Assembly: GCA_950054255.1 (NCBI GenBank)
Contig: CATLOR010000002.1
Span: 143,106-207,105, forward strand
Direction: 5' to 3'
Length of the DNA stretch: 64,000 nucleotides
From: an uncultured Rickettsiales bacterium
GTDB taxonomy: Bacteria; Pseudomonadota; Alphaproteobacteria; Micavibrionales; GCA-2720935
Positions within the stretch are counted from its first letter, which is position 1. Each line of letters starts with the position of its first letter. The notes under the pieces were generated by a model, which was not told the DNA's origin, ran no database searches, and worked only from the letters and a program-made list of their open reading frames with translations. The position numbers and the translations under genes are program-made. Positions 22,344-62,881 of this stretch are shown here, in pieces.

Positions 22344-22439
22344 ATTTTAAAAAGTTTTTGTTTGTTATACTGCTAAATAAATATTATATAAGTTTTTGTA
22401 ACTTTTAGTTAATATTAAGGATAAGGGTTTCTCAAAGTT

Positions 22440-24215: not shown

Positions 24216-24219
24216 AGAT

Positions 24220-25317: not shown

Positions 25318-25369
25318 TTTTCCATCACCAATCTATAGGGGGCGAGGTTATCATAATATGTAAAATATG

Positions 25370-26128: not shown

Positions 26129-26209
26129 GAAAAGAGTTCTTTGAATCTAGTTTTTCTTAAGTATAATCCAATACACAAATGTTAAAAACAAAAAAAATAG
26201 GTAAATTTC

Positions 26210-26818: not shown

Positions 26819-26908
26819 AAACTTTTTTAAAAAGAAGCTTGCACAAAATTTCTTTCTTGTGTAGATATAGCATCACTTCATTGAGTTGAAGTCTTTATAT
26901 TAAGAATA

Positions 26909-26985
<77 letters not shown>

Positions 26986-27007
26986 TCTTTTTTAAATCCT
27001 TTTATAT

Positions 27008-45520: not shown

Positions 45521-46326
45521 GGTGATGTCAGACTAAATCGAACTATTCTCCAAAAGCATACTACGTCAAGTTTTAGGCTACAAGAATTTCATTCCACGCA
45601 TCAAGCGAGGATTGTCTTAAATCTTTAAATGTGTCTCTTTTTTCGTTGTGTCTTTCGTGATTAAAATAGTTTTGGAATTGCGATTGTATCGCGGTGAATT
45701 TTTGAAGGGATCCCATTGATCGGAACCTGTTCATGATTTTTTCTCGCCGTCGAAAATGGAGGTGAGAGTTTTCAACTAAGTTGTTTTTATAGCGTGTCGT
45801 ATTTTGTGAAAATTTCATATTCATGCGCTGTAAAGCAGCACCATAAGAGCCCAATTTATCTGTAATAATTTCTCTTGGTTTCCCGTGTTGTGAGACTAGT
45901 TTCTTAAGCACCTTAAGGGCGGCACGCCGATCCCGCTTTTTCGTTACGTAACAATCTAAAACCGTTCCTTCATGGTCAATCGCTCGCCATAAGTAATGTA
46001 ACTCACCATTAATTTTGACGAATACCTCGTCGATGTGCCATCGCCATTTCGATGGGGCATGGCTACGTTTTTTCTTTAGCTCTTTGGCAATAATGGGACC
46101 CAGATGGTTCCACCAATATCGAACCGTTTCATGACAAATATCAATACCACGTTCATACAAAATATCTTCAACATTTCGTAAGCTGAGTGGATAACGAACG
46201 TAATATTGCACAGCTAATTTGATGATTTCAGGGCTGGTTTTATAGTATTTAAAGGGATCTATTTTACTCATATCAGATTTTATCATGTTATATTTTTCAA
46301 AAACATCGTTTTAATCTGACAAGACC
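45521..46326 (-). mobile_element. IS6-family insertion sequence, copy 1 (806 bp)
   Basis: Terminal inverted repeats GGTGATGTCAGACTAAATCGA (45521...) and GGTCTTGTCAGATTAAAACGA (reverse complement ending at 46326). Single transposase ORF. Confidence 0.9.
45573..46286 (-). CDS. IS6-family transposase (DDE)
   Basis: 237 aa, the size and sequence style of IS26/IS6 Tnp (WRWHIDEVFVKINGELHYLWRAIDHEG..., ITDKLGSYGAA...NNLVENSH). Confidence 0.9.
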   Translation of the reverse strand: MIKSDMSKIDPFKYYKTSPEIIKLAVQYYVRYPLSLRNVEDILYERGIDICHETVRYWWNHLGPIIAKELKKKRSHAPSKWRWHIDEVFVKINGELHYLWRAIDHEGTVLDCYVTKKRDRRAALKVLKKLVSQHGKPREIITDKLGSYGAALQRMNMKFSQNTTRYKNNLVENSHLHFRRREKIMNRFRSMGSLQKFTAIQSQFQNYFNHERHNEKRDTFKDLRQSSLDAWNEILVA

Positions 46327-46641
46327 ATTTTGACAAATATCTCGTCGATGTGCCATCGCCATTTCGAAGGTGCATGGTTACGTTTTTTCTTTAGCTCTTT
46401 TGCAATAATAGGACCTAAATGATTCCACCAATAACGAACCGTCTCATGACAAATATCAATGCCACGCTCATGCAAAATGTCTTCAACATTTCGCAGACTA
46501 AGCGGATAACGAACGTAATATTGTACCGCTAGTTTGATAATTTCAGGACTGGTTTTATAGTATTTGAAAGGATCTATTTTGCTCATAAGTAAGTCTATCA
46601 TGAACAGAATTAGGAAAACGTTATTTTAGTCTGACAAGACC
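46327..46641 (-). mobile_element. truncated older IS6-family copy (upstream IR plus 5' ~270 nt of tnp), interrupted by copy 1
   Basis: Own IR GGTCTTGTCAGACTAAAATAACG (reverse complement ending at 46641). The 96-aa ORF 46311-46601 matches Tnp residues 1 to ~90, then reads into the IR of copy 1 (...FVKMVLSD stop). Its nucleotide sequence is diverged from copy 1. Confidence 0.85.
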
Positions 46642-46654
46642 CTCATGGTTAGCC

Positions 46655-48835
46655 TCATATTTTTGTTAAATTTAAACGCAGCGCATTGCCGACTACGCTG
46701 ACGGAACTCAGCGACATGGCGGCAGCGGCGAAAATGGGTGAGAGTAAAATCCCGAAGACCGGATACAAAACACCTGCGGCAATCGGCACGCCCGCAGCGT
46801 TATAGATAAACGCGAAAAACAGGTTCTGCCGGATATTGCGCATGGTGGCGCGGGAGAGATTGATCGCCTCGGCAATACCGTTTAAATCACCGCGCAGCAG
46901 CGTTACGCCCGCGCTTTCCATGGCAACATCGGTTCCGGTTCCCATGGCAATACCGACATGCGCAGCCGCCAGTGCGGGCGCATCATTCACACCGTCTCCG
47001 GCCATGGCCACGACTGCGCCTTTATCACGCAGCTCTCCGACAATGCGGCTTTTATCCTCCGGCATTACATCGGCATGCACTTCATCAATGCCGAGCTTTT
47101 CTGCCACCGCGCGGGCGGTCGTTTCGTTATCTCCGGTCAGCATCACGATCTTTAAACCCGCTTTATGAAGGTTTTGAATAGCCTCCGGCGTGGTATCTTT
47201 GATCGGGTCGGAGACGGCAATAACGCCCGCCGCCTTGCCGTTCACGGCCACAAACATGGCTGTCGCGCCTTGCGCCCGTAAATTATCCGCTCCTTCCGTA
47301 AGGGGCGTTATATCCGCGCCTATGGCTTCCATCATTTTACTGTTACCAAGCGCGACCTTGGCACCGCTGACCTGACCTTTCACGCCTTTGCCTGTTATGG
47401 CCTCAAAATCCAGCGCTTTGGGCAATTCCAGATCCTGATCATGGGCGGCGCGGACAATCGCCTCGGCCAGCGGGTGTTCACTGCCTTGTTCCAACGCCGC
47501 AGAAATGGTGAGCAACTCGCTCTCCTCAAAGCCGTCTGCAGTGATAATATCGGTCAGGGCCGGTCGGCCTTGTGTGAGCGTTCCTGTTTTATCGACAATC
47601 AGCGTGTCCACCTTTTCCATGGTTTCCAGCGCTTCGGCGTCTTTGATCAAAACACCAGCCTTTGCGCCGCGACCGACGCCCACCATAATCGACATGGGCG
47701 TGGCCAGTCCCAAAGCGCACGGACAGGCGATAATCAAAACGCTGACGGCGGCAATCAAGGCGTAGCTAAAGGCCGGAGCTGGGCCAACCAGCGACCAGAC
47801 AATAAAGGCGATGATGGCGATCACAATGACAATCGGCACAAACCAGCCCGCGACGAGGTCGGCCATGCGCTGAATAGGAGCGCGGCTCCGCTGCGCGTCC
47901 GCCACCATTTTAACGATCTGCGCCAGCATCGTATCGCGCCCGACTTTTTCAGCGCGGATAATGATCGAGCCGTTGGCGTTGACCGTGGCTCCTATAACCT
48001 TGGATCCGGCCTGTTTTTCGACAGGCATCGGTTCGCCTGTGACCATGGATTCATCAATATGGCTGCTGCCTTCACTCACAACGCCGTCCACTGGCACTTT
48101 TTCGCCTGGACGGATCCGCAAATGGTCACCGACCTGAATATCTTCGATGGCAATTTCCTGCGCATCGCCGTTGTCATCAATCCGGTGTGCGGTTTTGGGG
48201 GCCAGCCCCAGCAAGGCTTTAATCGCACCGCCTGTGCGTTCCCGCGCTTTAAGCTCCAGTATTTGCCCCAGCAAGACCAAAGTCACGATCACCGCCGCCG
48301 CTTCAAAATATACTGGCACTGCGCCGCTTTCGCCCCTGAAGGAATCGGGGAAGATATCCGGCGTGACAGTTGCCGCAACGCTGTAAATCCACGCTACGCC
48401 CGTTCCCATAGCGATCAGTGTGAACATATTGAGGTTGCGGCTTTTGACCGATGCCCAGCCGCGTTCAAAGAACGGCCAGCCCGCCCATAAAACAACAGGC
48501 GTGGCGAGGACAAGCTGGATCCAGTTGGAAGTCGTGCCGTCCATAAACTCATGAAAGCCCAGCAAGTGAGATCCCATCTCCAGAATAAAGACCGGAATGG
48601 TGAGGATCAGACCGACCCAGAACCGTCGCCTGAAATCCGTCAGATCTGGGTTTTCGCCTTCATCGCCCGTCATCGTTTCCGGCTCAAGCGCCATGCCGCA
48701 TATGGGGCAAGTCCCAGGGCCTTTTTGAATGACCTCTGGGTGCATCGGGCAGATATAGGTGATCTCGTTCGGATCCACGCCCTCTGGCAGCGGAGCTGGC
48801 TCTTTATGCTCGTGGCTGTGGCAACAATCGCTCAT
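46655..48835 (-). CDS. copA: copper/silver-translocating P1B-type ATPase
   Basis: CPC ([13 protein letters not shown]), [21 protein letters not shown]. The N-terminus has CCHSHEH and a CPMHPEV...CPICGM zinc-ribbon-like metal-binding motif instead of a classical GMTCxxC HMA domain. Confidence 0.9.
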
Positions 48836-48838
48836 GGT

Positions 48839-50164
48839 TTATTCCTTTTCTTCTTTGTAATGTTTGAGGAAGATACGCTCTCCGGCGAAAATGAAGATCA
48901 TCGCCGCAATAGAGACATAAATAACCAGCATGTCGCTTTGCGCTTTCATCCATAAAAACGCGCCCAGCACCACCACATCCATGACGATGGCGGTGATTAG
49001 CACAAAGGCGTTGGCATTGATCTTGTGGCGCAAATACCGAAACACGCCCCAATGGACGGCTATATCCATGACGAGGTAGAAAATAGCGCCCAGCGATGCG
49101 ATCCGGCTGAGATCAAAAAATATGGTCAGGAACATGGCCAGTGCAATCGTGTACACCAGCGTATGTTTTTGAATGTCACCAGGCATCCCGAAATGGCTGT
49201 GCGGCACCAGCTTCATATCGGTGAGCATCGCCAGCATGCGTGAGACGGCAAAAGCACTGGCAATCACGCCGGAGACGGTGGCTATAATCGCCAGCACGAC
49301 CGTAAACCACAGGCCGAAATCACCAAAGGCCGGACGCGCTGCTTCCGCCAGGGCGAAGTTTTTCGCCGCGATAATTTCCGGCAGCGATAAATTCATCGAC
49401 ACCGCCATAGCGACCAGAAAGTAAACAACCACGCAAATTACAATGGAGAGAATAATCGCCCGCCCAACATTGCGGTGCGGATCCACAATCTCCGAGCCGC
49501 TATTGGTGATGGTGGTAAAGCCTTTATAGGCAAGAATGGCCAGAGCTACTGCCGCCAAAAACCCGACAGCGCTGCCGCTGTCTGCGGGCGCAGCGGTCAT
49601 GTTTTCAAAAGAAATGCCGGAAATCCATAGCCCCGCAATCCCGAATGCGGCAATCCCGCCGATCTTTAAGAGCGACATGACAAAGGAAAACGTCCCGATC
49701 ATGCGGTTGCCGGAAATGTTGATGATGAAGGCGAAGATTAATAATCCCACGCCAAGCGCCGGAACGAGCCAGCTATTCTGGTCGATATCAAAGAGCTGTA
49801 GGGTATAGGTGCCAAAGGTGCGGGCCACTAGGCTCTCATTGATGACCATGGAGAAATACATCAATAGCCCGCAAGCGGCTGTAATGGTGCCTTTGCCATA
49901 GGCTTTTTCTAAAAACATGGCGATCCCGCCCGCAGATGGGAACGCATTGGACATTTTCACATAGGAATAAGCGCTAAACGCGGTAATGACCGCTGCCACC
50001 AAAAATGCGAGAGGAAAGTGCGGGCCGGCCAGCTCCGCAATTTGTCCGGTCAGGGCGAAAATTCCTGCGCCAATAATCACGGCTGTCCCCATAGAGACAG
50101 CCCCGATCAGGCTTAAGCTGTTTTCTTTATACTGCGCGGCTTTGCCGTGTTGTGAATGATCCAT
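48839..50164 (-). CDS. APC-superfamily permease (amino acid/polyamine type)
   Basis: 441 aa, about 12 TM, glycine-rich helices typical of the APC fold. Sits 3 nt upstream of copA. Confidence 0.7.
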   Translation of the reverse strand: MDHSQHGKAAQYKENSLSLIGAVSMGTAVIIGAGIFALTGQIAELAGPHFPLAFLVAAVITAFSAYSYVKMSNAFPSAGGIAMFLEKAYGKGTITAACGLLMYFSMVINESLVARTFGTYTLQLFDIDQNSWLVPALGVGLLIFAFIINISGNRMIGTFSFVMSLLKIGGIAAFGIAGLWISGISFENMTAAPADSGSAVGFLAAVALAILAYKGFTTITNSGSEIVDPHRNVGRAIILSIVICVVVYFLVAMAVSMNLSLPEIIAAKNFALAEAARPAFGDFGLWFTVVLAIIATVSGVIASAFAVSRMLAMLTDMKLVPHSHFGMPGDIQKHTLVYTIALAMFLTIFFDLSRIASLGAIFYLVMDIAVHWGVFRYLRHKINANAFVLITAIVMDVVVLGAFLWMKAQSDMLVIYVSIAAMIFIFAGERIFLKHYKEEKE

Positions 50165-50329
50165 TTAGTTTTTACTGCCGCAGCAACCTCCTTGTTTTTC
50201 AGCCTTGTCTGTGTCCGGCTTTTTGGCTTCGCCGTCACAGCAACCGTCTTTTTCTTTTTCCGGCTGGCTGTGATCGTGATGTTTATCGCCGCCGCAACAG
50301 CCGCCGTCTTTGTGATCGTGATGGGTCAT
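50165..50329 (-). CDS. 54-aa Cys-Cys/His-rich putative metal-binding peptide (not in the ORF track)
   Basis: Hand translation: MTHHDHKDGGCCGGDKHHDHSQPEKEKDGCCDGEAKKPDTDKAEKQGGCCGSKN. The ATG overlaps the ICMT stop (ATGA). AAGGAG lies ~9 nt upstream. The stop abuts the APC start codon. Confidence 0.55.
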   Translation of the reverse strand: MTHHDHKDGGCCGGDKHHDHSQPEKEKDGCCDGEAKKPDTDKAEKQGGCCGSKN

Positions 50330-50988
50330 GATGATGCTCCTTTAGTGGTTGGGGTTGATGAAAACTTGGGAATAAAGGCCGGAACATGGGCGGCGTAATC
50401 GTCCCATGCCTTGCCGAAACGCTCCCTTGAATCCTGCTCTTCTTTTTTGGCCAGCCGGATATACATGAAAGTCAAAATCGGGAACAGCACCACGGTCGGG
50501 ATGGTCGGCCATTGCAGCAAAAACCCGAACATAATGGCGATAAAGCCGATATATTGCGGGTGCCGGACTTTTTGATATAAGCCCGCGACCGCCATTTTTC
50601 CGGCGCGTTGAGCTTTGAATAAAACAGGCCATGCCGCCGAGAGAACCCAGAAACCGCCGCCAATAAAGACAAAGCTGGCGAGATGCATCGGATCAAAGTG
50701 CGGGTTGCCTTCAAAGCCCAGGATTGTGTTCCAGAGATGCCCGTTTTCGTGCGTTGTAAAATCAACGCCTGGGTATTTCTCTGCCAGCCAGCCGGACATG
50801 AGATAGATGGTCAGCGGGAAGCCGTACATTTCCGTGAACAGCGCCACCAGAAAACCGGAGAACGCGCCGAAGCTGCGCCAGTCGGCCTTGGTCTGCGGTT
50901 TGGCAAAGCTGAAAGCAAAGATAATGAAAATCAGCGAGTTTAAAATAACCAGGCTCCAGAGGCCGTATGATTGCATTGCATGTTCCAT
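50326..50988 (-). CDS. isoprenylcysteine carboxyl methyltransferase (ICMT)/PEMT-family membrane methyltransferase (CzcN/NccN-like)
   Basis: 220 aa, multi-TM. GLYQKVRHPQYIGFIAIMFGFLLQWPT is the family signature. Confidence 0.75.
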   Translation of the reverse strand: MEHAMQSYGLWSLVILNSLIFIIFAFSFAKPQTKADWRSFGAFSGFLVALFTEMYGFPLTIYLMSGWLAEKYPGVDFTTHENGHLWNTILGFEGNPHFDPMHLASFVFIGGGFWVLSAAWPVLFKAQRAGKMAVAGLYQKVRHPQYIGFIAIMFGFLLQWPTIPTVVLFPILTFMYIRLAKKEEQDSRERFGKAWDDYAAHVPAFIPKFSSTPTTKGASS

Positions 50989-50991
50989 GAT

Positions 50992-51237
50992 TTAGTCCTC
51001 TTTATCCTTGTCTTTATGATCGCCATGCCCGCCGTGACTGCCATGCATAAACACATGGATCAAAGGGCAAGCCAGCAGGATCAGCCATATCCAGTTATTG
51101 CCGATATGCGCGGCATGTTCCTGAATGAGAAGATACGCGGCCACCGCGAAAAAGAAGATGCACGCCATGCCGAACGGTGTTTTCCACCATGGCTTGGTCT
51201 TCTCCGGTTTGTGGTAATGCTCGTGCTCGTGATCCAT
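50992..51237 (-). CDS. DUF2933-family small membrane protein, His-rich
   Basis: 81 aa, two TM. LLACPLIHVFMHGSHGGHGDH matches the DUF2933 pattern as I remember it. Confidence 0.65.
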   Translation of the reverse strand: MDHEHEHYHKPEKTKPWWKTPFGMACIFFFAVAAYLLIQEHAAHIGNNWIWLILLACPLIHVFMHGSHGGHGDHKDKDKED

Positions 51238-51240
51238 TGT

Positions 51241-51663
51241 TTAATCTCCTTTGTGCTTATGATTTGAATGTAAAAACGTAACTATCGGGCAATCGCTCAA
51301 AGGCAGATCGCCGCCTGGACACTCCGCCGCCAGATCTTCGAGGCTTCTTTTCATCGCCATAAGATCCTCGATATCTTTTTGGGCTTCGGTAATTTTGGTT
51401 TCTGTAAGATCCAGCATGTCCTGCGCAGTACCGCCGTCTGATGCGTGTAATTCAAGAAGGGATTGGATTTCCGAGAGCTTAAAGCCCAAAGACTTAGCGC
51501 GTTTGATGAAGGCTACCCGCGCGACAGACGCAGCATCATAAAGTCTGTAGCCAGAACTTGTCCGACCAACAGGCTCGATGAGCTTCAGCGTTTCATAATA
51601 ACGGATCGTATCCGTTCTCACGCCGCTTTCTCTTGCTAATTGTCCAATCGTCATATCTGCCAT
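51241..51663 (-). CDS. MerR-family heavy-metal-responsive regulator (CueR/HmrR-like)
   Basis: N-terminal wHTH (MTIGQLARESGVRTDTIRYYE), dimerisation helix, C-terminal metal loop CPGGDLPLSDCP. No Cys at the position that typifies divalent-metal sensors. Confidence 0.85.
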   Translation of the reverse strand: MADMTIGQLARESGVRTDTIRYYETLKLIEPVGRTSSGYRLYDAASVARVAFIKRAKSLGFKLSEIQSLLELHASDGGTAQDMLDLTETKITEAQKDIEDLMAMKRSLEDLAAECPGGDLPLSDCPIVTFLHSNHKHKGD

Positions 51664-51686
51664 TATTCAATCCTTATATTTGGGAG

Positions 51687-51716
51687 CGTATACCTTGGAG
51701 TATGCTCCAAGGTCAA
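51687..51716 (-). promoter_or_regulatory. MerR-type operator/promoter
   Basis: Minus strand reads TTGACC-TTGGAGCATACTCCAAGG-TATACG. There is a perfect 9-bp dyad ACCTTGGAG-N4-CTCCAAGGT (51692-51713) overlapping the -35, with an 18-19 nt spacer. The layout parallels the E. coli PcopA CueR site (TTGACCTTCC...GGAAGGT). Confidence 0.65.
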
Positions 51717-51720
51717 GCCC

Positions 51721-52296
51721 TTAATGCGGATGCCCGCTGTGATCATCGTGATCACCTTGATCACCGTGCGGGTCTGCTTCTGCCGCGCCGTGGTGTCCTG
51801 CGCCAGCATCCTCACCATGCGCGTGGCTTCCATGACCGCCATCGCCAGAGATTTCCGGCATACGCATCACGCCCATGCCGTGGCGGTAAACGACTTCGCC
51901 GCCCTTATATCCGGTCACGGCCAACAAGCCGGAGGCCAGCAAGATCAAAACAACAAAGCCGGAGCTGACGGATTTTGCGCCGCGATGTTTGGCCAGCGAC
52001 CATATCGCCAGAACGCCGAATATGGACGCTGTTACCAGCGCCCAATTCTTATGGTCAGTCATGGCCGCGTGGGATGGGCCGTCATGCGCCACGGTGTTAT
52101 AGGCATAGAAACCAGCCAAAACCGTACCGACTGTGATGCCAGCACCAATCCAGAGATTCCACCGCGCGACAATCAGAAGGTTCGGCCTCCTTAAAACCAG
52201 TCCGGCCAGATAAAGCAGCGATGACAGGCTTAAGAGTGCCACCGTGAAATGCACAAAGATTGGGTGCCAATTTGGTATGATTTCTATGTCCATCAT
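51721..52296 (-). CDS. DUF2231-family membrane protein with His-rich C-terminal tail
   Basis: N-terminal NWHPIFVHFTVAL motif, 4 TM, tail GGHGSHAHGEDAGAGHHGAAEADPHGDQGDHDDHSGHPH. Confidence 0.6.
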   Translation of the reverse strand: MMDIEIIPNWHPIFVHFTVALLSLSSLLYLAGLVLRRPNLLIVARWNLWIGAGITVGTVLAGFYAYNTVAHDGPSHAAMTDHKNWALVTASIFGVLAIWSLAKHRGAKSVSSGFVVLILLASGLLAVTGYKGGEVVYRHGMGVMRMPEISGDGGHGSHAHGEDAGAGHHGAAEADPHGDQGDHDDHSGHPH

Positions 52297-52311
52297 TGTT
52301 TTAGTCCTCTC

Positions 52312-53013
52312 TTAGTGTTGGTGATCGCCATGACCAGCTTCCGGCGTCATAATTTTTGTGATCCGGTAAACCTTGTCTTCGCCAAGCTCTACATGAAAAT
52401 GAATGTCCTGTTCTGGCTTCAAAGTGCTCAAATCAACACCCTCTGCCACTGCTAAATCCATAGTCATTTCAGGCCATTTCAAAGCTGGTATAGGTTCATG
52501 CGTAAGGTTGAGTTTATTATTCTCAGCATCAATGCTGTGAACCACACCCTTACCCATGACCGCTACGCTATCTTCTGACATATCATGGCCAGAATGATCC
52601 ATTTTCCCATGGCTTGAATGATCCATAGGCATTTGCTTAATTTTTTGTTCTTGGGTGTTATTAAAAACGTAGTTTTTCATCGTTTCCTCGCTCTCGAAAT
52701 AATAAACATTGTTACTTGAATCTACGGCAATAACAGCTTCGGCTTTATCAACTGAATTACCACTTACAGGGTCAATAGCTGAGCGTATTGCTTCATCATT
52801 TTTCAGTCTTTCCTCGCACATTGAGCAACATCCGTAATAAGTCTTATCTCCTACTGGAACGGAAATTTGCTCTTTATCAAAAACGCTGTCATTCACCATG
52901 CAAATGTATTTTGATTCAACGATCTTGAGCTGGTTTTTACTCATTGAAGTGTCTTCTGCCGCTATAGCGGGAAAAGCTATAAATGCCATTAGTAATGTTA
53001 ATATTATTTTCAT
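52312..53013 (-). CDS. periplasmic YHS/TRASH-like plus CusF-like Cu(I)/Ag(I)-binding fusion protein
   Basis: Signal peptide MKIILTLLMAFIAFPAIA. YYGCCSMCEERL (YHS-like). C-terminal GVVHSID...ALKWPEMTMDL reproduces the CusF His/Trp/Met-x-Met site. Start set at 53013 (ATGA overlap with the upstream gene). Confidence 0.7.
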   Translation of the reverse strand: MKIILTLLMAFIAFPAIAAEDTSMSKNQLKIVESKYICMVNDSVFDKEQISVPVGDKTYYGCCSMCEERLKNDEAIRSAIDPVSGNSVDKAEAVIAVDSSNNVYYFESEETMKNYVFNNTQEQKIKQMPMDHSSHGKMDHSGHDMSEDSVAVMGKGVVHSIDAENNKLNLTHEPIPALKWPEMTMDLAVAEGVDLSTLKPEQDIHFHVELGEDKVYRITKIMTPEAGHGDHQH

Positions 53014-53480
53014 TGGTTTTTCTCCTTTAAGGTTATGGTTGGTAAATGAACATCCCACAGCTTTTGCACTGCAAAATATGTCACCATGACAGACCATCCA
53101 ATCAGAACCAGGCCGTTTAAAACCTGAACTCCAGTGATGAACTGCATAGCTCCATGTGGAAAAACATCGCCTATACCAAGCGATGAATAAGTGGCGGCTG
53201 AAAAATATATGTAGCCAAAAAAATTATCGTGGGCGATACCGCTTAATGGCTCTGCTCCAAAAGTGTGCACCATTACCCAATAGACTGTGCCGTAAATCCA
53301 AACAGCTACCGTATGGGCAGAAAAAATCGCAACAACTAGGAAGAACATTAAAGGACGATTTCGCAAATTGCGTTTTGCAATAATCCGCAACACAACCCCT
53401 AATATTTCATAAAAAATAGAAGTCGTTAAAAGCACTAAAGCAATACTAATGAAGATAGCTACAGACATATTCTCATACAT
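53010..53480 (-). CDS. two-TM ion-channel (Ion_trans_2-like) protein
   Basis: 156 aa. Pore-loop-like YFSAATYSSLGIGDVFP (a variant of the TxGYGD filter) between TM helices. Confidence 0.5.
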   Translation of the reverse strand: MYENMSVAIFISIALVLLTTSIFYEILGVVLRIIAKRNLRNRPLMFFLVVAIFSAHTVAVWIYGTVYWVMVHTFGAEPLSGIAHDNFFGYIYFSAATYSSLGIGDVFPHGAMQFITGVQVLNGLVLIGWSVMVTYFAVQKLWDVHLPTITLKEKNQ

Positions 53481-56400
53481 TAGGCACTCTCCATTTTTGA
53501 ATTACTAAAGCGCCGGCCTTCCCAGAGATAATAGATAACGGGAATAACGATCAGGGTGAGCAGCGTGGTGGTGATCATGCCGCCGACCATCGGCAGAGCG
53601 ATGCGGCGCATCACATCCGCGCCAAGTCCGGCGAAAATGAAGATCGGCAGCAATCCGGCGAATTCGGTAATCACCGTCATCAATACAGGCCGGATGCGCA
53701 TCAACGCGCCTTCAAAGACCGCTTCGCTGAGTTGCTCTTTAGTGGCGGGGCTGGTTTCGCGCACACGCAGATCGATATAAACCATCATGATCGTGGCGGT
53801 TTCGACCGCCAGCCCGCCGAGCGCGATAAAGCCCACTCCGGCGGCAACGGAGAGATTATAATCCGCCAGATAAATCGCCCACATCCCGCCGACCATGGCC
53901 ACAGGCAGCGAGAGCATCACCATCAGCGTCCGGTCGGTGCGTCCGAAATAAATCATCAGCAAAACAAAGATGGCAAAGCCAGCGGCGGGGATGGCGATAG
54001 AGAGCTGTTTTTTCGCCTCCAGCATCTGTTCAAACTGGCCTGACCATTCCACGGCATAGCCCGCAGGAAGATCGACATTATCGCGCACGGCGATTTGCGC
54101 GTCTTTCACATAGGAGCCGATATCGCGGTCCTCAATATCGACAAAGACCCAGCCTGTCAGCCGTGCATTTTCCGACTTGATCATTGGCGGGCCTTCGACG
54201 AATTCGATCTTCGCCAGCTCACCCAGCGGGATATGCTGGCCTTGGGGTGTGGGGACTAAAATATCAGATAGATCCTCTGGGTCTTCGCGAAACGGGCGGT
54301 CATAGCGCAGCATGATGTTATAGCGCTCACGCCCCTGAATGGATTCGGACATTTTCATTCCACCGAGCGCGGTGCCGATAATATTCTGGAATACGCCCAG
54401 ATCAATATTGCGCCGCGCCAGTTCGTCTCTGTCTGGGGTCACTTCCAGATATTTCCCGCCTGTAACGCGGTCGGCAAAAGCGGAGCGTGTGCCATCAACG
54501 TCTTTGATCGCAGCCTCAATATCCAAAGCCACGCGGCCTATGGTGTCGAGATGATCGCCGGAAATTTTAATGCCGATGGGCGTGCGGATTCCCGTCGAGA
54601 TCATATCCATACGGATTTTGATCGGATAGCCCCATGAATTGACTACCCCAGGCAATTTGACGCGGGCATTCATATCCTTGATCAAATCCTCCGGCGTCAT
54701 GCCTTTACGCCAGTCCTCGCGCGGTTTGAGTTTGATCCATGTCTCGATCATCGAAATCGGTGCCGGATCCGTGGCGGTATCAGCGCGGCCAACCTTGCCG
54801 AATACGTGATGGACTTCCGGCACATCCTTGATCATGCGGTTGGTCTGCTGCAGGATTTCCTTGGCCTTGGTGATCGACACCCCAGGCAAAGTGGTCGGCA
54901 TATAAAGCAATTCGCCCTCATACAGCGCGGGCATGAATTCCGAGCCTGTGCGCATAATCGGCACGGCCATGCTTGCGATCAAGGCAATGGTGACAATAAT
55001 TGTCAGCGCGGGTTTGGCCAGCACATGGCGCAGGAGCGGACGGTAGAGCTTTAATAGCCCCGCATTGACCGGATTGACTTCGGCCTTTTTGATTTTACCG
55101 CGCAGCATCCATAGCATAAGGATCGGAATGACCGTCACCGATAAAATGGCGGCAAAGCCCAGCACATAGGTCTTGGTGAAGGCCAGCGGTGAAAACAGGC
55201 GGTAGGATTGCCCTGTGAGCGCCAGTACAGGAAGGAAGGAGATCGTGATAATCAGCAGCGAGAAAAACAGCCCAGGGCCGACTTCCTTGGCGGCATCCAG
55301 TATGGCTTTGTGCCTTTGGTCTTTTGGCGCATCCTCCGATAGCTCCGCCAGCTTCCTGTGCGCGTTTTCGACCATGACAATCGAGGCATCCACCATTGTC
55401 CCAATCGCAATCGCAATCCCGCCCAGCGAGACGATATTGGCGGTGATGCCTTGCGCCGACATAATGATAAATGCGCCCAAGACGCCAAGCGGCAGCACAA
55501 TCAGCGCGACAAAGGCCGAGCGGACATGCAGCAAAAAGATAAACACGACCAGCGAGACAATAATCGCCTGTTTGATCAGCGTGTCGGTGAGATAATTCAC
55601 AGCGCCTTCAATCAGCGGGGCGCGGTCATAAACAGGGACGATCTCCACGCCTTCGGGCAGGCCTTGCTGCAGCTCGGCCAGTTTTTCTTTTACGCCCTCA
55701 ATCACATGCAAAGCGTTCTCGCCGGCCCGCATCACAACAACGCCAGCCACGACTTCACCTTCGCCGTTTAGCTCGGTCACGCCGCGCCGCAGCTCCGGCC
55801 CCTCAATCACGCGGGCAACATCCTCCAGCTTCACAGGGGTGCCGTCTCTGGCATAGAGAACAATCTTTTTAAGCTGGCTGATATCGGTGACATAGCCTTT
55901 GGAGCGGATCATCAGCTCCATCTCAGCTTTTTCAATGACGCGGCCTCCGGCATCCATACTGGCGCTTTTAACCGCTTCCATTAGGCGCTTTAAGGGAATA
56001 TCAAAGGCACGGAGACGGTTGGGATCAATGAGGATCTGGTATTCTTTGACAAACCCGCCGACCGAGGCCACCTCCGATACGCCGTCCACGGTCGCCAGCT
56101 CGAATTTTAAAAACCAGTCCTGCAAACTGCGCAGATCAGAGAGATCATGATCGCCGCTTTTATCAATCAGCGCATATTGATAGACCCAGCCCACACCTGT
56201 GGCATCGGGGCCGATCTGCGGCACGACATTGGGCGGCAGATCGCCCTGAATTTTGGACAGCGCCTCGATCACGCGGCTCCGCGCCCAATACTGGTCGATT
56301 TTGTCTTCAAAAATGATATAGACAAAGGATGTGCCGAACATCGAAAACCCGCGCACATTTTTGGTTTCCGGTAGCCCTAACATCGTGGTCGAGAGCGGAT

Positions 56401-56644
56401 ATGTGACCAGATCCTCAACAATCTGCGGTGACTGCCCGACAAAATCGGTGCGGATAATCACCTGCGTATCCGACATATCGGGGATGGCATCCAGCGGGGT
56501 TTTCTGCACCGCCAGAATGCCCGCCACCAATAATGCGATCATCATCACAATAATCAGCAACTGGTTATTGACCGAATACTCAATGACTTTCGCCACAAAG
56601 GATTGCGAGGGGTCGCGCGTCTGGTTTGGATCAGTGGTTGGCAT
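53480..56644 (-). CDS. cusA: heavy-metal efflux RND pump CusA (Cu+/Ag+)
   Basis: 1054 aa. The N-terminus aligns closely with E. coli CusA from memory (DAIPDMSDTQVIIRT...PQIVEDLVTYPL...VRGFSMFG...YWARSRV...GPDATGVGW). All three CusA Met-triad contexts are conserved (LLYMPTT, ISMIETW, RMDMISTG). Confidence 0.9.
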   Translation of the reverse strand: MPTTDPNQTRDPSQSFVAKVIEYSVNNQLLIIVMMIALLVAGILAVQKTPLDAIPDMSDTQVIIRTDFVGQSPQIVEDLVTYPLSTTMLGLPETKNVRGFSMFGTSFVYIIFEDKIDQYWARSRVIEALSKIQGDLPPNVVPQIGPDATGVGWVYQYALIDKSGDHDLSDLRSLQDWFLKFELATVDGVSEVASVGGFVKEYQILIDPNRLRAFDIPLKRLMEAVKSASMDAGGRVIEKAEMELMIRSKGYVTDISQLKKIVLYARDGTPVKLEDVARVIEGPELRRGVTELNGEGEVVAGVVVMRAGENALHVIEGVKEKLAELQQGLPEGVEIVPVYDRAPLIEGAVNYLTDTLIKQAIIVSLVVFIFLLHVRSAFVALIVLPLGVLGAFIIMSAQGITANIVSLGGIAIAIGTMVDASIVMVENAHRKLAELSEDAPKDQRHKAILDAAKEVGPGLFFSLLIITISFLPVLALTGQSYRLFSPLAFTKTYVLGFAAILSVTVIPILMLWMLRGKIKKAEVNPVNAGLLKLYRPLLRHVLAKPALTIIVTIALIASMAVPIMRTGSEFMPALYEGELLYMPTTLPGVSITKAKEILQQTNRMIKDVPEVHHVFGKVGRADTATDPAPISMIETWIKLKPREDWRKGMTPEDLIKDMNARVKLPGVVNSWGYPIKIRMDMISTGIRTPIGIKISGDHLDTIGRVALDIEAAIKDVDGTRSAFADRVTGGKYLEVTPDRDELARRNIDLGVFQNIIGTALGGMKMSESIQGRERYNIMLRYDRPFREDPEDLSDILVPTPQGQHIPLGELAKIEFVEGPPMIKSENARLTGWVFVDIEDRDIGSYVKDAQIAVRDNVDLPAGYAVEWSGQFEQMLEAKKQLSIAIPAAGFAIFVLLMIYFGRTDRTLMVMLSLPVAMVGGMWAIYLADYNLSVAAGVGFIALGGLAVETATIMMVYIDLRVRETSPATKEQLSEAVFEGALMRIRPVLMTVITEFAGLLPIFIFAGLGADVMRRIALPMVGGMITTTLLTLIVIPVIYYLWEGRRFSNSKMESA

Positions 56645-58322
56645 GTGCGCCTCCTGCGGGCATTTCGGTTATTTCAGGGGCTTCGGCCTCTACCTTGTCC
56701 GGCCAGTCGATTTTCATCGGATGACCTTCGCCGTACGGGTTCTCAACCTCATCGCCCAGCTGGAGCCAATAGGTGTCCAGACCGTGCGCCATATAGAATT
56801 GCAGCCCTTTGGATTTATAGTGCTGGGGTTTGCCCTCCAGCAGCCATGGTTTGAGCGCTGTGACCAGATTATTCAGGCTGTTCTGCCATTCCTTATCGGT
56901 CACATTGTCCTGTGCGGCTTTGAGTGCCATTTCCGCATCTTCCAAAACAAACTGCAGCTTGGTGCCACGGAAGACGGGCATCAAATGATCGCCCAGCGTG
57001 ATGGCGGGCATAATCATATTCGGATTGGGTGTGCGTCCGGTCGTCAGCTCTTTTTGGATATAAATGGCGGCATCAATCAGATGGTCGATCATCGCCAGCT
57101 GGTCATCCGTCATGTCTAAAAGAGCAAGCGGCATCTGCATGCGCTGCATTTTGCGGAAGGATTCCCGCAAGGCACTTTCAGAGTCGATCAGGAATTGTCC
57201 GCTGACCACCACCTTGTCTTTTTCAGCCAAGCCGTCCAGCACTTCCGTGCGGCCTTTATATTTCAATCCGGCCAGAATTTTGCGCGGCTGGAAGCGCCCC
57301 TGATCCATGGCCACCACCACAAAGTCGCCGTCCTTGCTTTTAAGAATAGCATCGCCTGGGATGGACAAACGGCGATCAACGCCTGTTTCCAGCTCCACAT
57401 CGGCGTAAGCGCCAGGCTTTAATTTGCCGTCCGCATTATCCAGCACCAGCCGGATCCGGCCTGTGCGCGTGGCGCGGTCAATCGTGGGATAGATATAATC
57501 AATGGCGGCTTCTTTTTCTTTTACCCCAAGGGCTGGGAGAGAGACCATCGCCTTTGTCTCTTTGGTAATATACGGGATATCCTGCTCGGCCACGCTGACA
57601 TCAACCCAGACCGTGTCGTAATTTTGCAGGGTCATCAAATTCATACCTGGCTTGGCATAGGTGCCGTCACGCACATTCATCGCACTGACCAGACCGTCAC
57701 TTTCCGCGTAGTACGGGACGCTTTGAAAGGCTTTGCGGCGGCTCTTGACCTCTTCGATGGCGCGTTTTTGCATGCCTAAAGACACGAGGCGCTTGGCGGC
57801 GGAGTCAATCCGGCCTTTATAGCCTGTGGCAATAGCGCTTATCAAATCCTGCTGCGCAGAAATCAGCGCCGGGCTGTAGAGATTAAAAAGCAGATCGCCT
57901 TTTTTCACTTCATCGCCCATGGCCTGGACTTTCAAATCCTCGACCCAGCCTTCCACGCGGGCGGAGATATCAAATTGCAGCCGGACATTTTCCGTCACAT
58001 CGCCATAGCTGCGCACCAAGGTGCCAAAGCTGGCCATCTGCGCTTCCTCGGTGCGGATGCCTGTATTCTGGATCGTTTCAGGGTCGATGGTGACGGTGGT
58101 GCGTTCCATACCGCCTTTATCACTTTTATCCATGCTTTCCATGGCTGCGCCGTCATCTTCACCTTCCAACTCCACCAGATCCATGCCGCAAATCGGGCAT
58201 GTGCCTGGGCGATCTGCGACATAATGCGGATGCATGGGGCATGTGTATTGTTCGGCTTGCGCTATCGCGGGGACGGCAAATAAAGCCAGTATTAAAAAGA
58301 ATGCGGGGATAAACTGTCTCAT
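56631..58322 (-). CDS. cusB: RND periplasmic adaptor CusB-like, with N-terminal CPMHP...CPICGM metal-binding motif and extended C-terminal domain
   Basis: Signal peptide. [24 protein letters not shown]. HlyD/MFP barrel-sandwich core. About 150 extra C-terminal residues (DUF3347-like helical region). Confidence 0.85.
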   Translation of the reverse strand: MRQFIPAFFLILALFAVPAIAQAEQYTCPMHPHYVADRPGTCPICGMDLVELEGEDDGAAMESMDKSDKGGMERTTVTIDPETIQNTGIRTEEAQMASFGTLVRSYGDVTENVRLQFDISARVEGWVEDLKVQAMGDEVKKGDLLFNLYSPALISAQQDLISAIATGYKGRIDSAAKRLVSLGMQKRAIEEVKSRRKAFQSVPYYAESDGLVSAMNVRDGTYAKPGMNLMTLQNYDTVWVDVSVAEQDIPYITKETKAMVSLPALGVKEKEAAIDYIYPTIDRATRTGRIRLVLDNADGKLKPGAYADVELETGVDRRLSIPGDAILKSKDGDFVVVAMDQGRFQPRKILAGLKYKGRTEVLDGLAEKDKVVVSGQFLIDSESALRESFRKMQRMQMPLALLDMTDDQLAMIDHLIDAAIYIQKELTTGRTPNPNMIMPAITLGDHLMPVFRGTKLQFVLEDAEMALKAAQDNVTDKEWQNSLNNLVTALKPWLLEGKPQHYKSKGLQFYMAHGLDTYWLQLGDEVENPYGEGHPMKIDWPDKVEAEAPEITEMPAGGAHANH

Positions 58323-59572
58323 TCTGACACCTCCTGAAGTGCTGGCTCTTGATAAGCGCCTATGATGTTGGAATTGAATTCGGCGGCGCGGCTGATATGC
58401 ATCTCTTTGACCGCTGCCAGTTGTGCCTGAATGTTCAGGCGGTCGATTTTGGCCAGCAAAACAGAATCCAGATTTTCGGTTCCGGCTTCATAATTACGCT
58501 GCGCGGCATCGATCTTCTTTTTCATCGCCCAGTCTTTATCCTGCAGGACTTTGACGTTCTTGGCGGCGGCATCACGGTTGCTCTGCAGCGCGGTCATCTG
58601 TTTGTCCCAGAGGCGGCGCACATCGTCATAAGCGAATTTGGCGCTGCGCTCACGCTCTCTGGCGGCTTTGAGTTTGGGTTTTTGGTTGCTGTCCGCCCAG
58701 AGCGGTATGCTGACCTGCGCCTGTATTGAAAACCAGTCATCGCCGGAGAAGCTGCCGCGCTCACCATCCTCGCGCTGCTTATAGACAGCGTTGATCCCGA
58801 AATTCGGCAGGAAGGCGGCATCGGCGATTCCCACATCCTTTTTGGCGATATCGATATCCTCGGCGGCAATCATCACCGGATAAAGCGCTGTGGGGTTTTT
58901 GTCCCACGCCATATCAGCAATCTCCGGCATGTCGATATCCGGCACATCATCAATCAGGCGTATAAATTCGGCTTCAATAGAGGCCAGCCGCGCATCCAGA
59001 TCATTGAGCTTGCGTTCGGCCTCGGCGCGTTCTACGTCCACTTCGGAAAATCTTTGATAAACCGCGCGGCCTGATTCAATCTGGCCTTTAAACGTGTTCT
59101 CCAGCTCCTTGTAATGGCCGAGCTGGGTCTTGATCAGTTTTTTCTGGGTTTTAACACTCTCATATTCGGCCAGCTTGGAGATCAGCATAAAGCGCAACCG
59201 TGCATTGGTGTAATCCGCCATGAGCTTTTGCTTTTCCGACATTTGCTCATAGCGCTCAGATTTGGCTTCCCGCGCGGCAGGGTTGGGAATGCTTTGTGAA
59301 AACCCGATCACTTTGGAGGTTGGCAGGAAGCGGTCAAAAGCCGGATCCGATATTGGCATGTTATCAACGCCGATCATGAACATCGGATCGGGCAGGCCCA
59401 GCTCACCTTCAGCTTGTGATTTAAGCGCTTCGCTGCCCGCTAAAATGCTCTCCACTTGCGGGTGTTCACTAAGGCGCTTTACATACGCCTCAAAGGTCTC
59501 GGCATGGGCGGGCATCGATGCCAGCAGAGCAAAAAGCGCGGTGAATATTATTGTATGGTGTTTGTTTCGCAT
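58319..59572 (-). CDS. cusC: TolC-family outer-membrane factor CusC-like
   Basis: 417 aa, signal peptide, two OEP repeats. 4-nt overlap with cusB. Confidence 0.8.
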   Translation of the reverse strand: MRNKHHTIIFTALFALLASMPAHAETFEAYVKRLSEHPQVESILAGSEALKSQAEGELGLPDPMFMIGVDNMPISDPAFDRFLPTSKVIGFSQSIPNPAAREAKSERYEQMSEKQKLMADYTNARLRFMLISKLAEYESVKTQKKLIKTQLGHYKELENTFKGQIESGRAVYQRFSEVDVERAEAERKLNDLDARLASIEAEFIRLIDDVPDIDMPEIADMAWDKNPTALYPVMIAAEDIDIAKKDVGIADAAFLPNFGINAVYKQREDGERGSFSGDDWFSIQAQVSIPLWADSNQKPKLKAARERERSAKFAYDDVRRLWDKQMTALQSNRDAAAKNVKVLQDKDWAMKKKIDAAQRNYEAGTENLDSVLLAKIDRLNIQAQLAAVKEMHISRAAEFNSNIIGAYQEPALQEVSE

Positions 59573-59625
59573 GGTCTGATCTCCTTTTGGTTAAGCGAAA
59601 AGCGCATAACAAAATGCACTTAGCG

Positions 59626-59648
59626 CCCGTCATATTTCCAATGACAGG
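59626..59648. promoter_or_regulatory. candidate operator dyad upstream of cusC
   Basis: CCCGTCAT-ATTTCCA-ATGACAGG (7 of 8 matching arms), 54-76 nt upstream of the cusC ATG. The TGTCAT/ATGAC half-sites recall copper-box elements, but in a different arrangement. Confidence 0.3.
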
Positions 59649-59669
59649 CACACTAAAAGATATCCGTAT

Positions 59670-60077
59670 TTAGATGCGGAAGCGTTGTGTGGTGAGGTAG
59701 AGAGGGCGAGACGGAAGCTTATTCGCGCTCTCAAAAGGTGGGCCACGAATGACATTTGGTCTGTAGAGGAAATCATTATAATCAATAGCTAGATTTGCCC
59801 AAACAAAATCAACATCGGAAGAATCTTGAACCAAATCGTAGCTATTATCTATTTGAGCAAGATCAATCCCGAGACAGTCCATATTCAACATAAAATCACA
59901 ATCTGTTGATTGCTCATTCGATTCGTGACAAGGAGGTAAATCAGATTTTGTTTGTTCAGAAGCCTCTTTTGCATGAGCCTGCATAGGACAAAAAGACACG
60001 CTGCACGCTAAAGATAGCGTGAATATCGCAAAAATCATTAATGTCGAAACAGAAAATCTCATAATTTCATTGTACAC
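59670..60077 (-). CDS. hypothetical secreted protein (135 aa)
   Basis: Hydrophobic N-terminus (STLMIFAIFTLSLACS). Lower G+C than the cus genes. No recognisable motif. Confidence 0.4.
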   Translation of the reverse strand: MYNEIMRFSVSTLMIFAIFTLSLACSVSFCPMQAHAKEASEQTKSDLPPCHESNEQSTDCDFMLNMDCLGIDLAQIDNSYDLVQDSSDVDFVWANLAIDYNDFLYRPNVIRGPPFESANKLPSRPLYLTTQRFRI

Positions 60078-60149
60078 CTAAATAGTTAAATTTCAACTTT
60101 AATTATTTTATTCGTAATCTAAGTCAATTGGTTACTCTTTAGTTTCAAA

Positions 60150-60221
60150 GGTGATGTCAGACTAACTCGAACTATTCTCCAAAAGGGTGATGTCAGACTA
60201 AATCGAACTATTCTCCAAAAG
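60150..60221. repeat. tandem 2 x 36-bp duplication of the IS6 end (solo end remnant plus the end of copy 3)
   Basis: GGTGATGTCAGACTAACTCGAACTATTCTCCAAAAG (60150-60185) is followed directly by GGTGATGTCAGACTAAATCGAACTATTCTCCAAAAG (60186-60221). One mismatch. Confidence 0.9.
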
Positions 60222-60990
60222 CATACTACGTCAAGTTTTAGGCTACAAGAATTTCATTCCACGCATCAAGCGAGGATTGTCTTAAATCTTTAAATGTGTC
60301 TCTTTTTTCGTTGTGTCTTTCGTGATTAAAATAGTTTTGGAATTGCGATTGTATCGCGGTGAATTTTTGAAGGGATCCCATTGATCGGAACCTGTTCATG
60401 ATTTTTTCTCGCCGTCGAAAATGGAGGTGAGAGTTTTCAACTAAGTTGTTTTTATAGCGTGTCGTATTTTGTGAAAATTTCATATTCATGCGCTGTAAAG
60501 CAGCACCATAAGAGCCCAATTTATCTGTAATAATTTCTCTTGGTTTCCCGTGTTGTGAGACTAGTTTCTTAAGCACCTTAAGGGCGGCACGCCGATCCCG
60601 CTTTTTCGTTACGTAACAATCTAAAACCGTTCCTTCATGGTCAATCGCTCGCCATAAGTAATGTAACTCACCATTAATTTTGACGAATACCTCGTCGATG
60701 TGCCATCGCCATTTCGATGGGGCATGGCTACGTTTTTTCTTTAGCTCTTTGGCAATAATGGGACCCAGATGGTTCCACCAATATCGAACCGTTTCATGAC
60801 AAATATCAATGCCACGTTCGTACAAAATGTCTTCAACGTTTCGCAGGCTAAGCGGGTAACGAACATAGTACATGATCGCAAGTTTTATAATTTCAGGGCT
60901 GGTTTTGTAATATTTAAAGTGATTTATTTTTGTCATTATTAAGATTATCACGGCAAAAACCGTATAACATCATTTTAATCTGACAAGACC
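60186..60990 (-). mobile_element. IS6-family insertion sequence, copy 3 (805 bp)
   Basis: Same IRs as copy 1. 60186-60810 is identical by eye to 45521-46145. The last ~180 bp (tnp 5' end) is diverged. Confidence 0.9.
60238..60951 (-). CDS. IS6-family transposase (DDE)
   Basis: 237 aa. Identical to the copy-1 Tnp from about residue 28 onward, with a different N-terminal ~27 aa. Confidence 0.9.
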   Translation of the reverse strand: MIILIMTKINHFKYYKTSPEIIKLAIMYYVRYPLSLRNVEDILYERGIDICHETVRYWWNHLGPIIAKELKKKRSHAPSKWRWHIDEVFVKINGELHYLWRAIDHEGTVLDCYVTKKRDRRAALKVLKKLVSQHGKPREIITDKLGSYGAALQRMNMKFSQNTTRYKNNLVENSHLHFRRREKIMNRFRSMGSLQKFTAIQSQFQNYFNHERHNEKRDTFKDLRQSSLDAWNEILVA

Positions 60991-62105: not shown

Positions 62106-62166
62106 AAGCGTTATGCTTTAAGGATGGCAGGCTAGGAATTCTTCGTCACGGACGTTAATTGACCCA

Positions 62167-62766: not shown

Positions 62767-62881
62767 TTTAAAATCCTTTTATACTGTCTCTTTATTGTCG
62801 CAGATATTTTAATCTTTAAAAGTATAAATATAAACTGGACTTACCTGCGAAAGGAAGCGTGAATGGCTCTAACCTTAATGA

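Follow-up and report, generated by a model that had tools for sequence, protein, structure and literature searches.

A copper/silver-efflux module bracketed by directly oriented IS6-family elements in an uncultured marine alphaproteobacterium

The subject of this analysis is a 64,000-nt stretch of chromosomal DNA (hereafter the window) from an uncultured alphaproteobacterium, and in particular positions 45,521 to 60,990, where two insertion sequence (IS) copies of the IS6 family enclose a block of copper- and silver-efflux genes. The left copy (IS_left, 45521-46326, minus strand) is a complete IS6/IS26-family element of 806 bp, with the tip of its right inverted repeat (IRR) at 45521 and the tip of its left inverted repeat (IRL) at 46326. 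The right copy (IS_right, 60186-60990, minus strand) is a complete IS6-family element of 805 bp with its IRR tip at 60186. Both lengths lie within the range of ~700-890 bp given for the family (PMC7986276), and the transposase genes of both copies (45573-46286 and 60238-60951, respectively) are intact. Because both genes are on the minus strand, the two copies are direct repeats. The transposase (232-237 aa) fits the family range of about 213-254 aa, matched Pfam PF13610 (DDE_Tnp_IS240, E = 2.6e-39) and scored 203 and 201 bits for the two copies against the NCBIfam model transpos_IS6 (NF033587; cut-off 125). The D, D and E in the segments HIDEVFV, ITDKLGS and NNLVENSH, read by eye from the translation, are presumably the catalytic residues. 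The inverted repeats (IRs) begin with GG and have a TGT core (GGTGATGTCAGACTAAATCG vs GGTCTTGTCAGATTAAAACG, 16/20 identical), and six such tips were found in the window compared with 0.23 expected. The score of the hidden Markov model, the length and the inverted repeats all agree with an earlier sequence-only reading of this DNA, which had proposed two directly oriented IS6-family copies around about 13.5 kb.

The unique DNA between the two copies amounts to 13,508 bp. All 12 genes that had been named there from the letters alone were confirmed; they are co-directional on the minus strand with gaps of -14 to +57 nt. Three of them specify an efflux pump: cusC (58319-59572), for an outer-membrane factor (OEP, E = 1.1e-26), cusB (56631-58322), for a membrane-fusion adaptor with an N-terminal HMBD domain (HlyD_D23, E = 1.7e-63), and cusA (53480-56644), for a heavy-metal resistance-nodulation-division (RND) pump (ACR_tran, E = 4e-233; TIGR00914, 1140 bits compared with a cut-off of 701). 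The best match to CusA in the PDB was E. coli CusA (3k07, 1094 bits), which aligned end-to-end with Met573, Met623 and Met672 all conserved. A fourth gene (YHS-cusF, 52312-53013) encodes a secreted fusion of a YHS/TRASH-like domain with CusF (CusF_Ec, E = 1.5e-23; weak TRASH match); the product has a signal peptide and is predicted to be a periplasmic Cu(I)/Ag(I) chaperone. The HlyD_D23, OEP and CusF_Ec matches exceeded the Pfam cut-offs, and the NCBIfam subfamily models for CusB and CusF scored below theirs. Nearest to IS_left is copA (46655-48835), whose product is a Cu(I)/Ag(I) ATPase of the P1B type, with an HMBD domain at its N-terminus (E1-E2_ATPase, Hydrolase and HMBD matches; TIGR01511, 620 bits compared with a cut-off of 397). 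The transmembrane (TM) motifs CPC, YN and MxxSS define P1B-1 ATPases, and all three could be read in the CopA translation (ACPCALG, FIYNAAG and AAMSLSS). The copper/silver function proposed for the array is upheld, by homology, by these motifs together with the Met triad of CusA.

The other genes are interspersed with these. A 156-aa ion-channel-like protein with two TM segments (53010-53480; Ion_trans_2 PF07885, E = 8.3e-8) is encoded between cusA and cusF. Its SLGIGD motif aligned inside the Ion_trans_2 match at the place where K+ channels carry a GYGD-type filter, and its gene overlaps the stop and start codons of cusA and cusF, suggesting translational coupling; the same placement was seen in the relatives L090 and L091 (L-numbers denote metagenome contigs; the module was retrieved from the collections by exact-protein look-ups). 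Beyond YHS-cusF follow a DUF2231 membrane protein with a His-rich tail (51721-52296; PF09990, E = 1.2e-18), merR, for a metal-responsive regulator of the MerR family (51241-51663; MerR_1 and MerR-DNA-bind domains), a small DUF2933 membrane protein (50992-51237; PF11666, E = 1.7e-21) and an ICMT/PEMT-like membrane methyltransferase (50326-50988; PEMT, ICMT and ERG4 matches, E ~1e-5). An ICMT-like gene is paired with DUF2933 in Alteromonas copper clusters as well (PMC8478169). A 54-aa His-rich peptide (50165-50329), putatively metal-binding, has three GCC(G/D) motifs in its translation and found no family match in NCBIfam. These motifs are kept in the diverged relative L090 (14993-15169), the DNA of which is 81% identical in that stretch. 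An APC-superfamily permease (48839-50164; AA_permease_2, E = 2.7e-30) precedes copA, and in the relative L089, too, a permease of this type separates merR from copA. Upstream of cusC stands a thirteenth conserved open reading frame (ORF), orf135 (59670-60077, minus strand), whose Cys/His-rich product has a signal- or lipoprotein-like N-terminus and found no match in Pfam, NCBIfam or PHROG. ORFs of 125-131 aa occupy the same position in L089-L091; orf135 DNA is only 54-62% identical to that of L090/L091, and in G+C it resembles the host rather than cusCBA.

A MerR-type promoter/operator (51686-51716, minus strand) was recognized directly upstream of merR, with a -35 element TTGACC and a TATACG element separated by an 18-19-nt spacer that is filled by a perfect dyad, ACCTTGGAG-N4-CTCCAAGGT (51692-51713). 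The arrangement is unique in the window and found 0 matches in 100 shuffles; a general promoter scan was not enriched over shuffles. On the strength of the dyad promoter, a metal-induced operon running from merR to copA is predicted. The regulator itself scored 104-113 bits against the CueR, ZntR and MerR models, all below their cut-offs, and thus missed the CueR equivalog level (TIGR02044, 106 bits compared with a cut-off of 147). Neither a histidine kinase nor a response regulator is present among the 13 island genes, which lack CusRS and have the MerR-type regulator instead. The block from orf135 through cusCBA, the channel gene and cusF to DUF2231 follows the transposase gene of IS_right directly and in the same orientation, so that it may also be expressed by read-through from the IS.

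The composition of the array sets it apart from its surroundings. In 1-kb windows, G+C was 0.32-0.43 up to 46 kb and beyond 60 kb but rose in a sharp step to 0.52-0.57 across 47-52 and 54-59 kb. The two hand counts from which a foreign composition had been proposed (37/60 G+C at 47461-47520 and 20/60 at 10261-10320) were exact. G+C at third codon positions (GC3) gave the same abrupt shift: compared with a host baseline of 0.290 ± 0.030 in 27 flanking core chromosomal genes, copA (0.63), the APC permease, ICMT, DUF2933, DUF2231 and cusA, cusB and cusC were all at 0.60-0.66 (z = 10-12). The profile is therefore not flat by either measure, and the island is compositionally foreign as claimed. Three of its genes were near the host value (YHS-cusF, 0.37; channel gene, 0.38; orf135, 0.35) and merR was intermediate (0.47), so that the island is itself a mosaic. 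A patch of low G+C (52312-53480, 0.40) lies within it. At ~52.8-53.4 kb the DNA is 85-86% identical to that of the low-G+C relative L091, compared with ~77% over the remaining island, a pattern suggesting that high-G+C and low-G+C forms of the cluster have recombined. The IS copies, at 0.385-0.39, are near the host in G+C.

That the surrounding DNA belongs to a chromosome follows from infB, nusA, recJ, lnt, msbA, phaC and two tRNAs in the window (an Rfam scan of the window returned only the two tRNAs). The nearest named match to NusA was a metagenome-assembled genome (MAG) labelled 'Rickettsiales bacterium' (82%), with Rhodospirillales and Micavibrio at 65-68%. The gene that adjoins IS_left on the left flank encodes a major facilitator superfamily (MFS) protein with relatives in alphaproteobacterial, Rickettsiales and Holosporales MAGs. 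Core genes, NusA and the MFS protein thus concur on the low-G+C alphaproteobacterial chromosome that had been supposed.

Just inside the two complete IS copies are pieces of further ones. A 315-bp fragment of a third, older IS6 variant (46327-46641, minus strand), corresponding to IS positions 492-806 and 84% identical to IS_left, keeps its IRL tip adjoining the island, and was also present in L003, L004, L007, L185 and L201. An open 96-aa N-terminal transposase stub, comprising the DNA-binding part, can be read at 46311-46601. At the other end, a 36-nt IRR tip of another IS6 variant (60150-60185, minus strand) lies directly inside IS_right. The cusC-side junction, at which TTTCAAA is followed by GGTGATGTCAGACTAACTCG, was identical in all loci, and in L002 and L005 a complete IS, 87% related, ends there. 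Since a complete variant stands at exactly that junction in these two contigs, the 36-nt piece is a remnant; that it is the duplicated IR of a single IS was ruled out on the same evidence. The copA-side junction has two forms 14 nt apart, since in L002 and L005 a complete IS_left-type copy is inserted farther from the island than the window's fragment is; the two forms mean that IS copies arrived twice, independently. To judge from these pieces, there was an earlier generation of IS6 brackets that was invaded and mostly deleted by later copies.

The complete copies are mosaic as well. IS_left and IS_right are 100% identical over IS positions 1-625 and only 74% identical over the final 180 bp, at the transposase-start end. 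The 8 bp outside them are unlike, GTAGTGGC on the left and ATCATCAG on the right, as the sequence-only reading had noted. In PLSDB the nearest plasmid-borne transposases were IS6 proteins of Mesorhizobium, Sulfitobacter and Ruegeria at 57-59% amino acid identity (best 58.7%), and metagenome relatives were numerous at 68-99%, the few named ones being Alphaproteobacteria, Micavibrio or Rickettsiales. Judging by the labels of these relatives and by an IS G+C close to that of the host, the element is a new IS from a lineage native to low-G+C Alphaproteobacteria.

The module was found at ≥98% DNA identity in ocean-metagenome contigs of the Tara, SANC23, JGI and Logan collections, and a CusA 99.4% identical to that of the window has been deposited from an NCBI MAG labelled 'Micavibrio sp.'. 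Its surroundings varied. The copA-side IS had at least six different outer flanks and the cusC-side IS had three, with a flank G+C of 0.34-0.47. On the copA side these were the MFS gene, three cut points in resident copA' genes, a helicase context and a Ymh context; the copA' genes that were cut are of low G+C, resident and upstream of MCO-copB. In L186 (3657) and L188/L189 (3751), which come from different samples, the IS tip cuts one copA' allele at points separated by 33 nt, a pattern that nested IS-mediated events would produce. On the cusC side the flanks were a methylase, a module of CDF, merR, dsbD and lspA, and another methylase/recombinase element.

One contig showed two copies of the island in series. 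L003 (= L176/L179) reads, with no runs of N, methylase, IS_right, remnant, island, fragment, partial IS_left, remnant and second island; over 3.8 kb this second island shows 100% identity. Between 20005 and 23165 of this contig, copA is followed by the IS fragment, IS_left, the 36-nt remnant and a second orf135-cusC-cusB. Read from this order, L003 is a tandem array of translocatable units (TUs) or the junction of a circular TU. In L174 (2172-3305), a 3.3-kb Tara scaffold with an N gap on the copA side, IS_left and the IR tip of the 36-nt remnant are fused to the interior of cusA, and this scaffold looks like an IS-mediated deletion derivative. The same unit of IS plus cargo thus occurs at different sites and in an island-IS-island junction, as a translocatable unit does, and the island combines atypical composition, mobility genes at its borders and variable presence across loci, as is usual for a horizontally acquired genomic island.

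Taken together, we interpret the region as an IS6/IS26-type pseudo-compound transposon, or as a TU plus a resident IS, that carries an acquired Cu(I)/Ag(I) detoxification module, and we put the probability of this interpretation at roughly 85%. The sequence-only reading had held that the locus is not the product of a single clean transposition, and this is borne out by the lack of target-site duplications, by the IS remnants nested inside the brackets, by the mosaic make-up of the two copies and by a truncated methylase gene on the right flank (described below). Had the array been inherited vertically, with an atypical G+C for functional reasons, little would speak for it except that the genes of membrane proteins may deviate in composition. 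The GC3 shift exceeds 10 standard deviations, and the array occurs at several unrelated loci, always bordered by IS6 tips. The CusA of L090/L091 is 93% identical at the protein level but only 77% at the DNA level (compared with 53480-59572 of the window) and is encoded at ~41% G+C; this divergence is nearly all synonymous and tracks the G+C of the host, so that the protein needs no high G+C. Vertical inheritance, which had been named as the reading to guard against, is thereby excluded for practical purposes.

A 625-bp stretch that is identical in both IS copies could also mislead an assembler, and a G+C-rich module of another replicon or organism might have been threaded into this chromosome through it during assembly or binning. 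In one sample, all three pieces assembled from short reads (L001, L172 and L178) do indeed end within the IS. Both chromosomal junctions were, however, recovered independently. On the left, the order copA-fragment-IS-MFS is crossed by L185 (430 kb long, with 2 mismatches over 6.7 kb) and by L201 from JGI; the right junction is reproduced in L003, L172 and L173, and L003 runs across the IS into the methylase gene. In L002 the island lies within a 1.98-Mb scaffold between IS copies that are just 87% alike and therefore offer no long repeat to mislead an assembler, and 12 blocks of the collection contain the exact CopA on contigs of 0.2-1 Mb. A chimera is in our view very improbable.

The same mosaic copies, with their sharp switch from 100% to 74% identity, and the missing target-site duplications would also be produced if dispersed IS copies underwent RecA-dependent homologous recombination, for instance when an IS-bearing plasmid or circle integrated, with no transposase acting at the locus; the end products cannot be distinguished from cointegrates made by transposase (PMC4196232). 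Recombination of this kind would not place junctions exactly at IR tips in new, non-homologous targets, as in the cusA interior of L174 and at the three copA' end points, nor would it set IS tips beside positions 36/37 and 491/492 of older IS elements. Where an IR tip is joined precisely to an unrelated target, strand transfer of the transposase type must have taken part at some stage, and we regard an origin by RecA only as distinctly improbable.

The right flank brings in a different candidate vehicle. IS_right abuts a gene for a ParB_N plus N6/N4 DNA methyltransferase (60991-62105, minus strand; phrog_498, E = 2.5e-85) that is truncated at its 3' end, having lost ~75 C-terminal residues. 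The truncation had been noted before, and the lost part is indeed nowhere in the window. This methylase is the first gene of a prophage-like remnant that continues with orf199 (62167-62766, minus strand), DUF2924 (62882-63310, plus strand) and a large serine recombinase that starts at 63307 on the plus strand and runs off the window (PHROG matches to the remnant: phrog_95 integrase, E = 1.3e-93; phrog_11806). Beyond the remnant, L172 carries the core genes DUF218, SLT_2, rlpA-like, PBP5, tmk, holB and metG. IS6 arrays with metal modules adjoin such DUF2924 and large-serine-recombinase elements recurrently (60991-64000 of the window, 1-5400 of L002, and L192-L196). The IS6 arrays of L192-L196 carry CDF/CzcA genes, and the neighbouring recombinase elements are often truncated by IS.

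It could thus be argued that a larger integrative element or prophage with a large serine recombinase was the primary vehicle, that a single genomic island stretches from IS_left as far as the recombinase, and that the IS6 copies merely accreted and rearranged its cargo without having introduced the island into this chromosome. The prophage-like character of the right flank (serine integrase, DUF2924 and ParB-methylase, followed by core genes) is in keeping with this, as are a diverged homologue of the element that adjoins the island in L002 (recombinase 64% identical at the protein level) and the CDF- and CzcA-bearing arrays beside DUF2924 and recombinase genes in L192-L196. Yet the genes on the recombinase side have a host-like G+C (0.37-0.40) and the element is itself truncated by the IS. 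In L004, L006, L183, L184, L186 and L188 no recombinase gene lay in the stretch that was read beyond the IS, on the one side seen, and the junctions that do not vary are IS tips rather than att sites. We consider a recombinase-borne origin unlikely. Elsewhere in the window, GC skew changes at ~16 kb from around zero or negative to strongly positive (+0.17 to +0.26, about 15000-27000); the genes change strand at the same place (15.7-15.9 kb), where there is also an ORF of 1279 aa (15860-19699) with only a weak MCE-family match.

For the pseudo-compound transposon or TU that we favour, a history in four steps can be proposed from the anatomy of the locus. IS6 elements of a kind native to marine Alphaproteobacteria with low G+C would first have captured a G+C-rich cus/cop cluster between them. 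Later IS6 copies would then have hit, or recombined with, the first-generation copies and deleted most of them, leaving the 315-bp and 36-nt ends. The unit of IS, remnants and island could next have spread across sites and species through IS26-type cointegrates, formed by copy-in or by the targeted-conservative reaction beside an existing IS, or through recombination between IS copies. Finally, adjacent deletions mediated by the IS would have removed target-site duplications, trimmed the prophage-like neighbour and truncated the methylase gene. The route taken here may have been copy-in, the targeted-conservative reaction or RecA-dependent recombination. These routes have precedents: IS6 pseudo-compound transposons always have direct IS copies, and intramolecular events remove direct repeats (PMC7986276); TUs insert beside an existing IS without duplication (PMC4196232); and the naturally occurring hybrid IS1006/1008, which departs from IS1008 over just 175 bp at one of its ends, is reactive solely at the end that the two share (PMC7885326).

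The function of the module can be sketched by homology in the same way. CopA would move cytoplasmic Cu(I) to the periplasm, where YHS-CusF would deliver Cu(I)/Ag(I) to CusCBA, the tripartite RND pump that would expel it. The MerR-type activator, bound at the dyad that fronts its own gene, would turn on merR, DUF2933, ICMT, the CC peptide (the 54-aa product with GCC motifs), the APC permease and copA.

Several observations weigh against this interpretation. An 8-bp target-site duplication was absent from the ~10 IS copies examined (the 2 in the window, the 2 complete copies in L002 and 76%-related copies in L192-L199), which leaves the transposition chemistry inferred. Missing duplications are expected if all copies come from cointegrate or deletion events; all of those checked may be such products, with no simple insertion among them. 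All related sequences are metagenome assemblies, and the tandem junction is known from one contig and one short scaffold. The recurring DUF2924/serine-recombinase neighbourhood suggests that a second vehicle is possibly involved. The copper/silver resistance function and its regulation are predictions from homology only. An empty site or sister genome was not found: the best matches to the flanking MFS protein were 55% among GTDB species genomes and 54% in JGI metagenomes, with no usable synteny in either. The donor was not found either, the nearest CusA homologues not associated with IS being 90-93% identical in protein and 74-77% in DNA. These closest homologues (L089, in a conjugative context, L090 and L091) are of lower G+C, and with their DNA merely 74-77% identical they were rejected as donors. 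A megablast of the island and the IS against 72,556 plasmids returned only a 62-bp P-type ATPase motif, and in a tblastn search with CusA plasmid sequences reached ≤53% identity, which indicates that the donor is no known plasmid.

A wider picture can be offered tentatively, as a possibility that we would not yet back. Low-G+C marine Alphaproteobacteria might run an IS26-like 'resistance-island factory' for metals, in which a diverse native IS6 lineage captures, shuffles, tandemly amplifies and exchanges the Cu/Ag module between species across ocean basins. L003 and L174 might then represent real TU circles or amplification in natural populations, and the channel with its SLGIGD motif, the GCC-repeat peptide and orf135 might be uncharacterised parts of a copper-handling pathway. 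Whatever the fate of this picture, the 13.5-kb module (≥98% identical across collections) provides a trackable marker with which horizontal transfer in the recent past and selection by metals could be followed in the ocean, and the locus supplies conserved uncharacterised accessory genes linked to Cus and CopA.

Among known systems, the closest in architecture are the pseudo-compound transposons and TUs of the IS26 type (Tn4352 and Tn6023; IS26, IS257/431 and IS1216), which share an IS of ~800 bp with a single DDE transposase and direct copies, as well as duplications that are frequently absent, arrays or tandem units, IS-in-IS remnants and a resistance cargo (PMC7986276, PMC4196232). The present case departs from them in a transposase that shares no more than 59% identity with any IS6 member carried by a PLSDB plasmid, in a marine alphaproteobacterial host that is uncultured and free-living, and in a 13.5-kb cargo of metal-efflux rather than antibiotic-resistance genes; its activity is a prediction from sequence. 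The IS1006/IS1008 pair of Acinetobacter is, like IS_left and IS_right, identical save ~175-180 bp at the transposase-start end. There the targeted-conservative reaction was seen, in experiments, only at the identical end (PMC7885326); the IS species here are different ones.

With regard to the cargo, E. coli CusCFBA together with CopA/CueR has in common with the island the three-Met CusA, CusB, CusC, CusF, a CPC P1B ATPase and an activator of the MerR family with a long-spacer dyad promoter. The island differs in having no CusRS, a CusF fused to a YHS/TRASH-like domain, a regulator that scores below the CueR equivalog and HMBD in place of HMA domains in CopA and CusB; the two-TM channel, DUF2231, DUF2933, ICMT, CC peptide, APC permease and orf135 are extra. 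The marine merR-copA-cupredoxin-DUF2933-ICMT clusters of islands and plasmids in Alteromonas and other marine Gammaproteobacteria (PMC8478169) likewise have merR, copA, DUF2933 and an ICMT-like gene on mobile DNA. The order of genes is different here, there is no cupredoxin gene but a CC peptide and an APC permease instead, and the cluster is joined to cusCBA, with IS6 at its borders; on plasmids, the best CusA reaches just 53% identity. A related cluster stands on the conjugative element in L089, which adjoins genes for a relaxase, a type IV coupling protein (T4CP) and ArdA and has the order orf-cusCBA-cusF-DUF2231-merR-APC-copA with a CusA 90% identical in amino acids. At the DNA level it is only 64-74% identical, and it has no IS6, channel, DUF2933, ICMT or CC peptide. 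TUs of the IS26 type are known almost entirely from clinical antibiotic resistance, and the same architecture appears here in free-living uncultured marine Alphaproteobacteria: direct and hybrid IS copies, IS-in-IS remnants, no duplications, many contexts and a tandem or circular junction. The island is neither a new kind of mobile element nor a new resistance mechanism; it is an environmental, metal-resistance counterpart of clinical IS26 biology.

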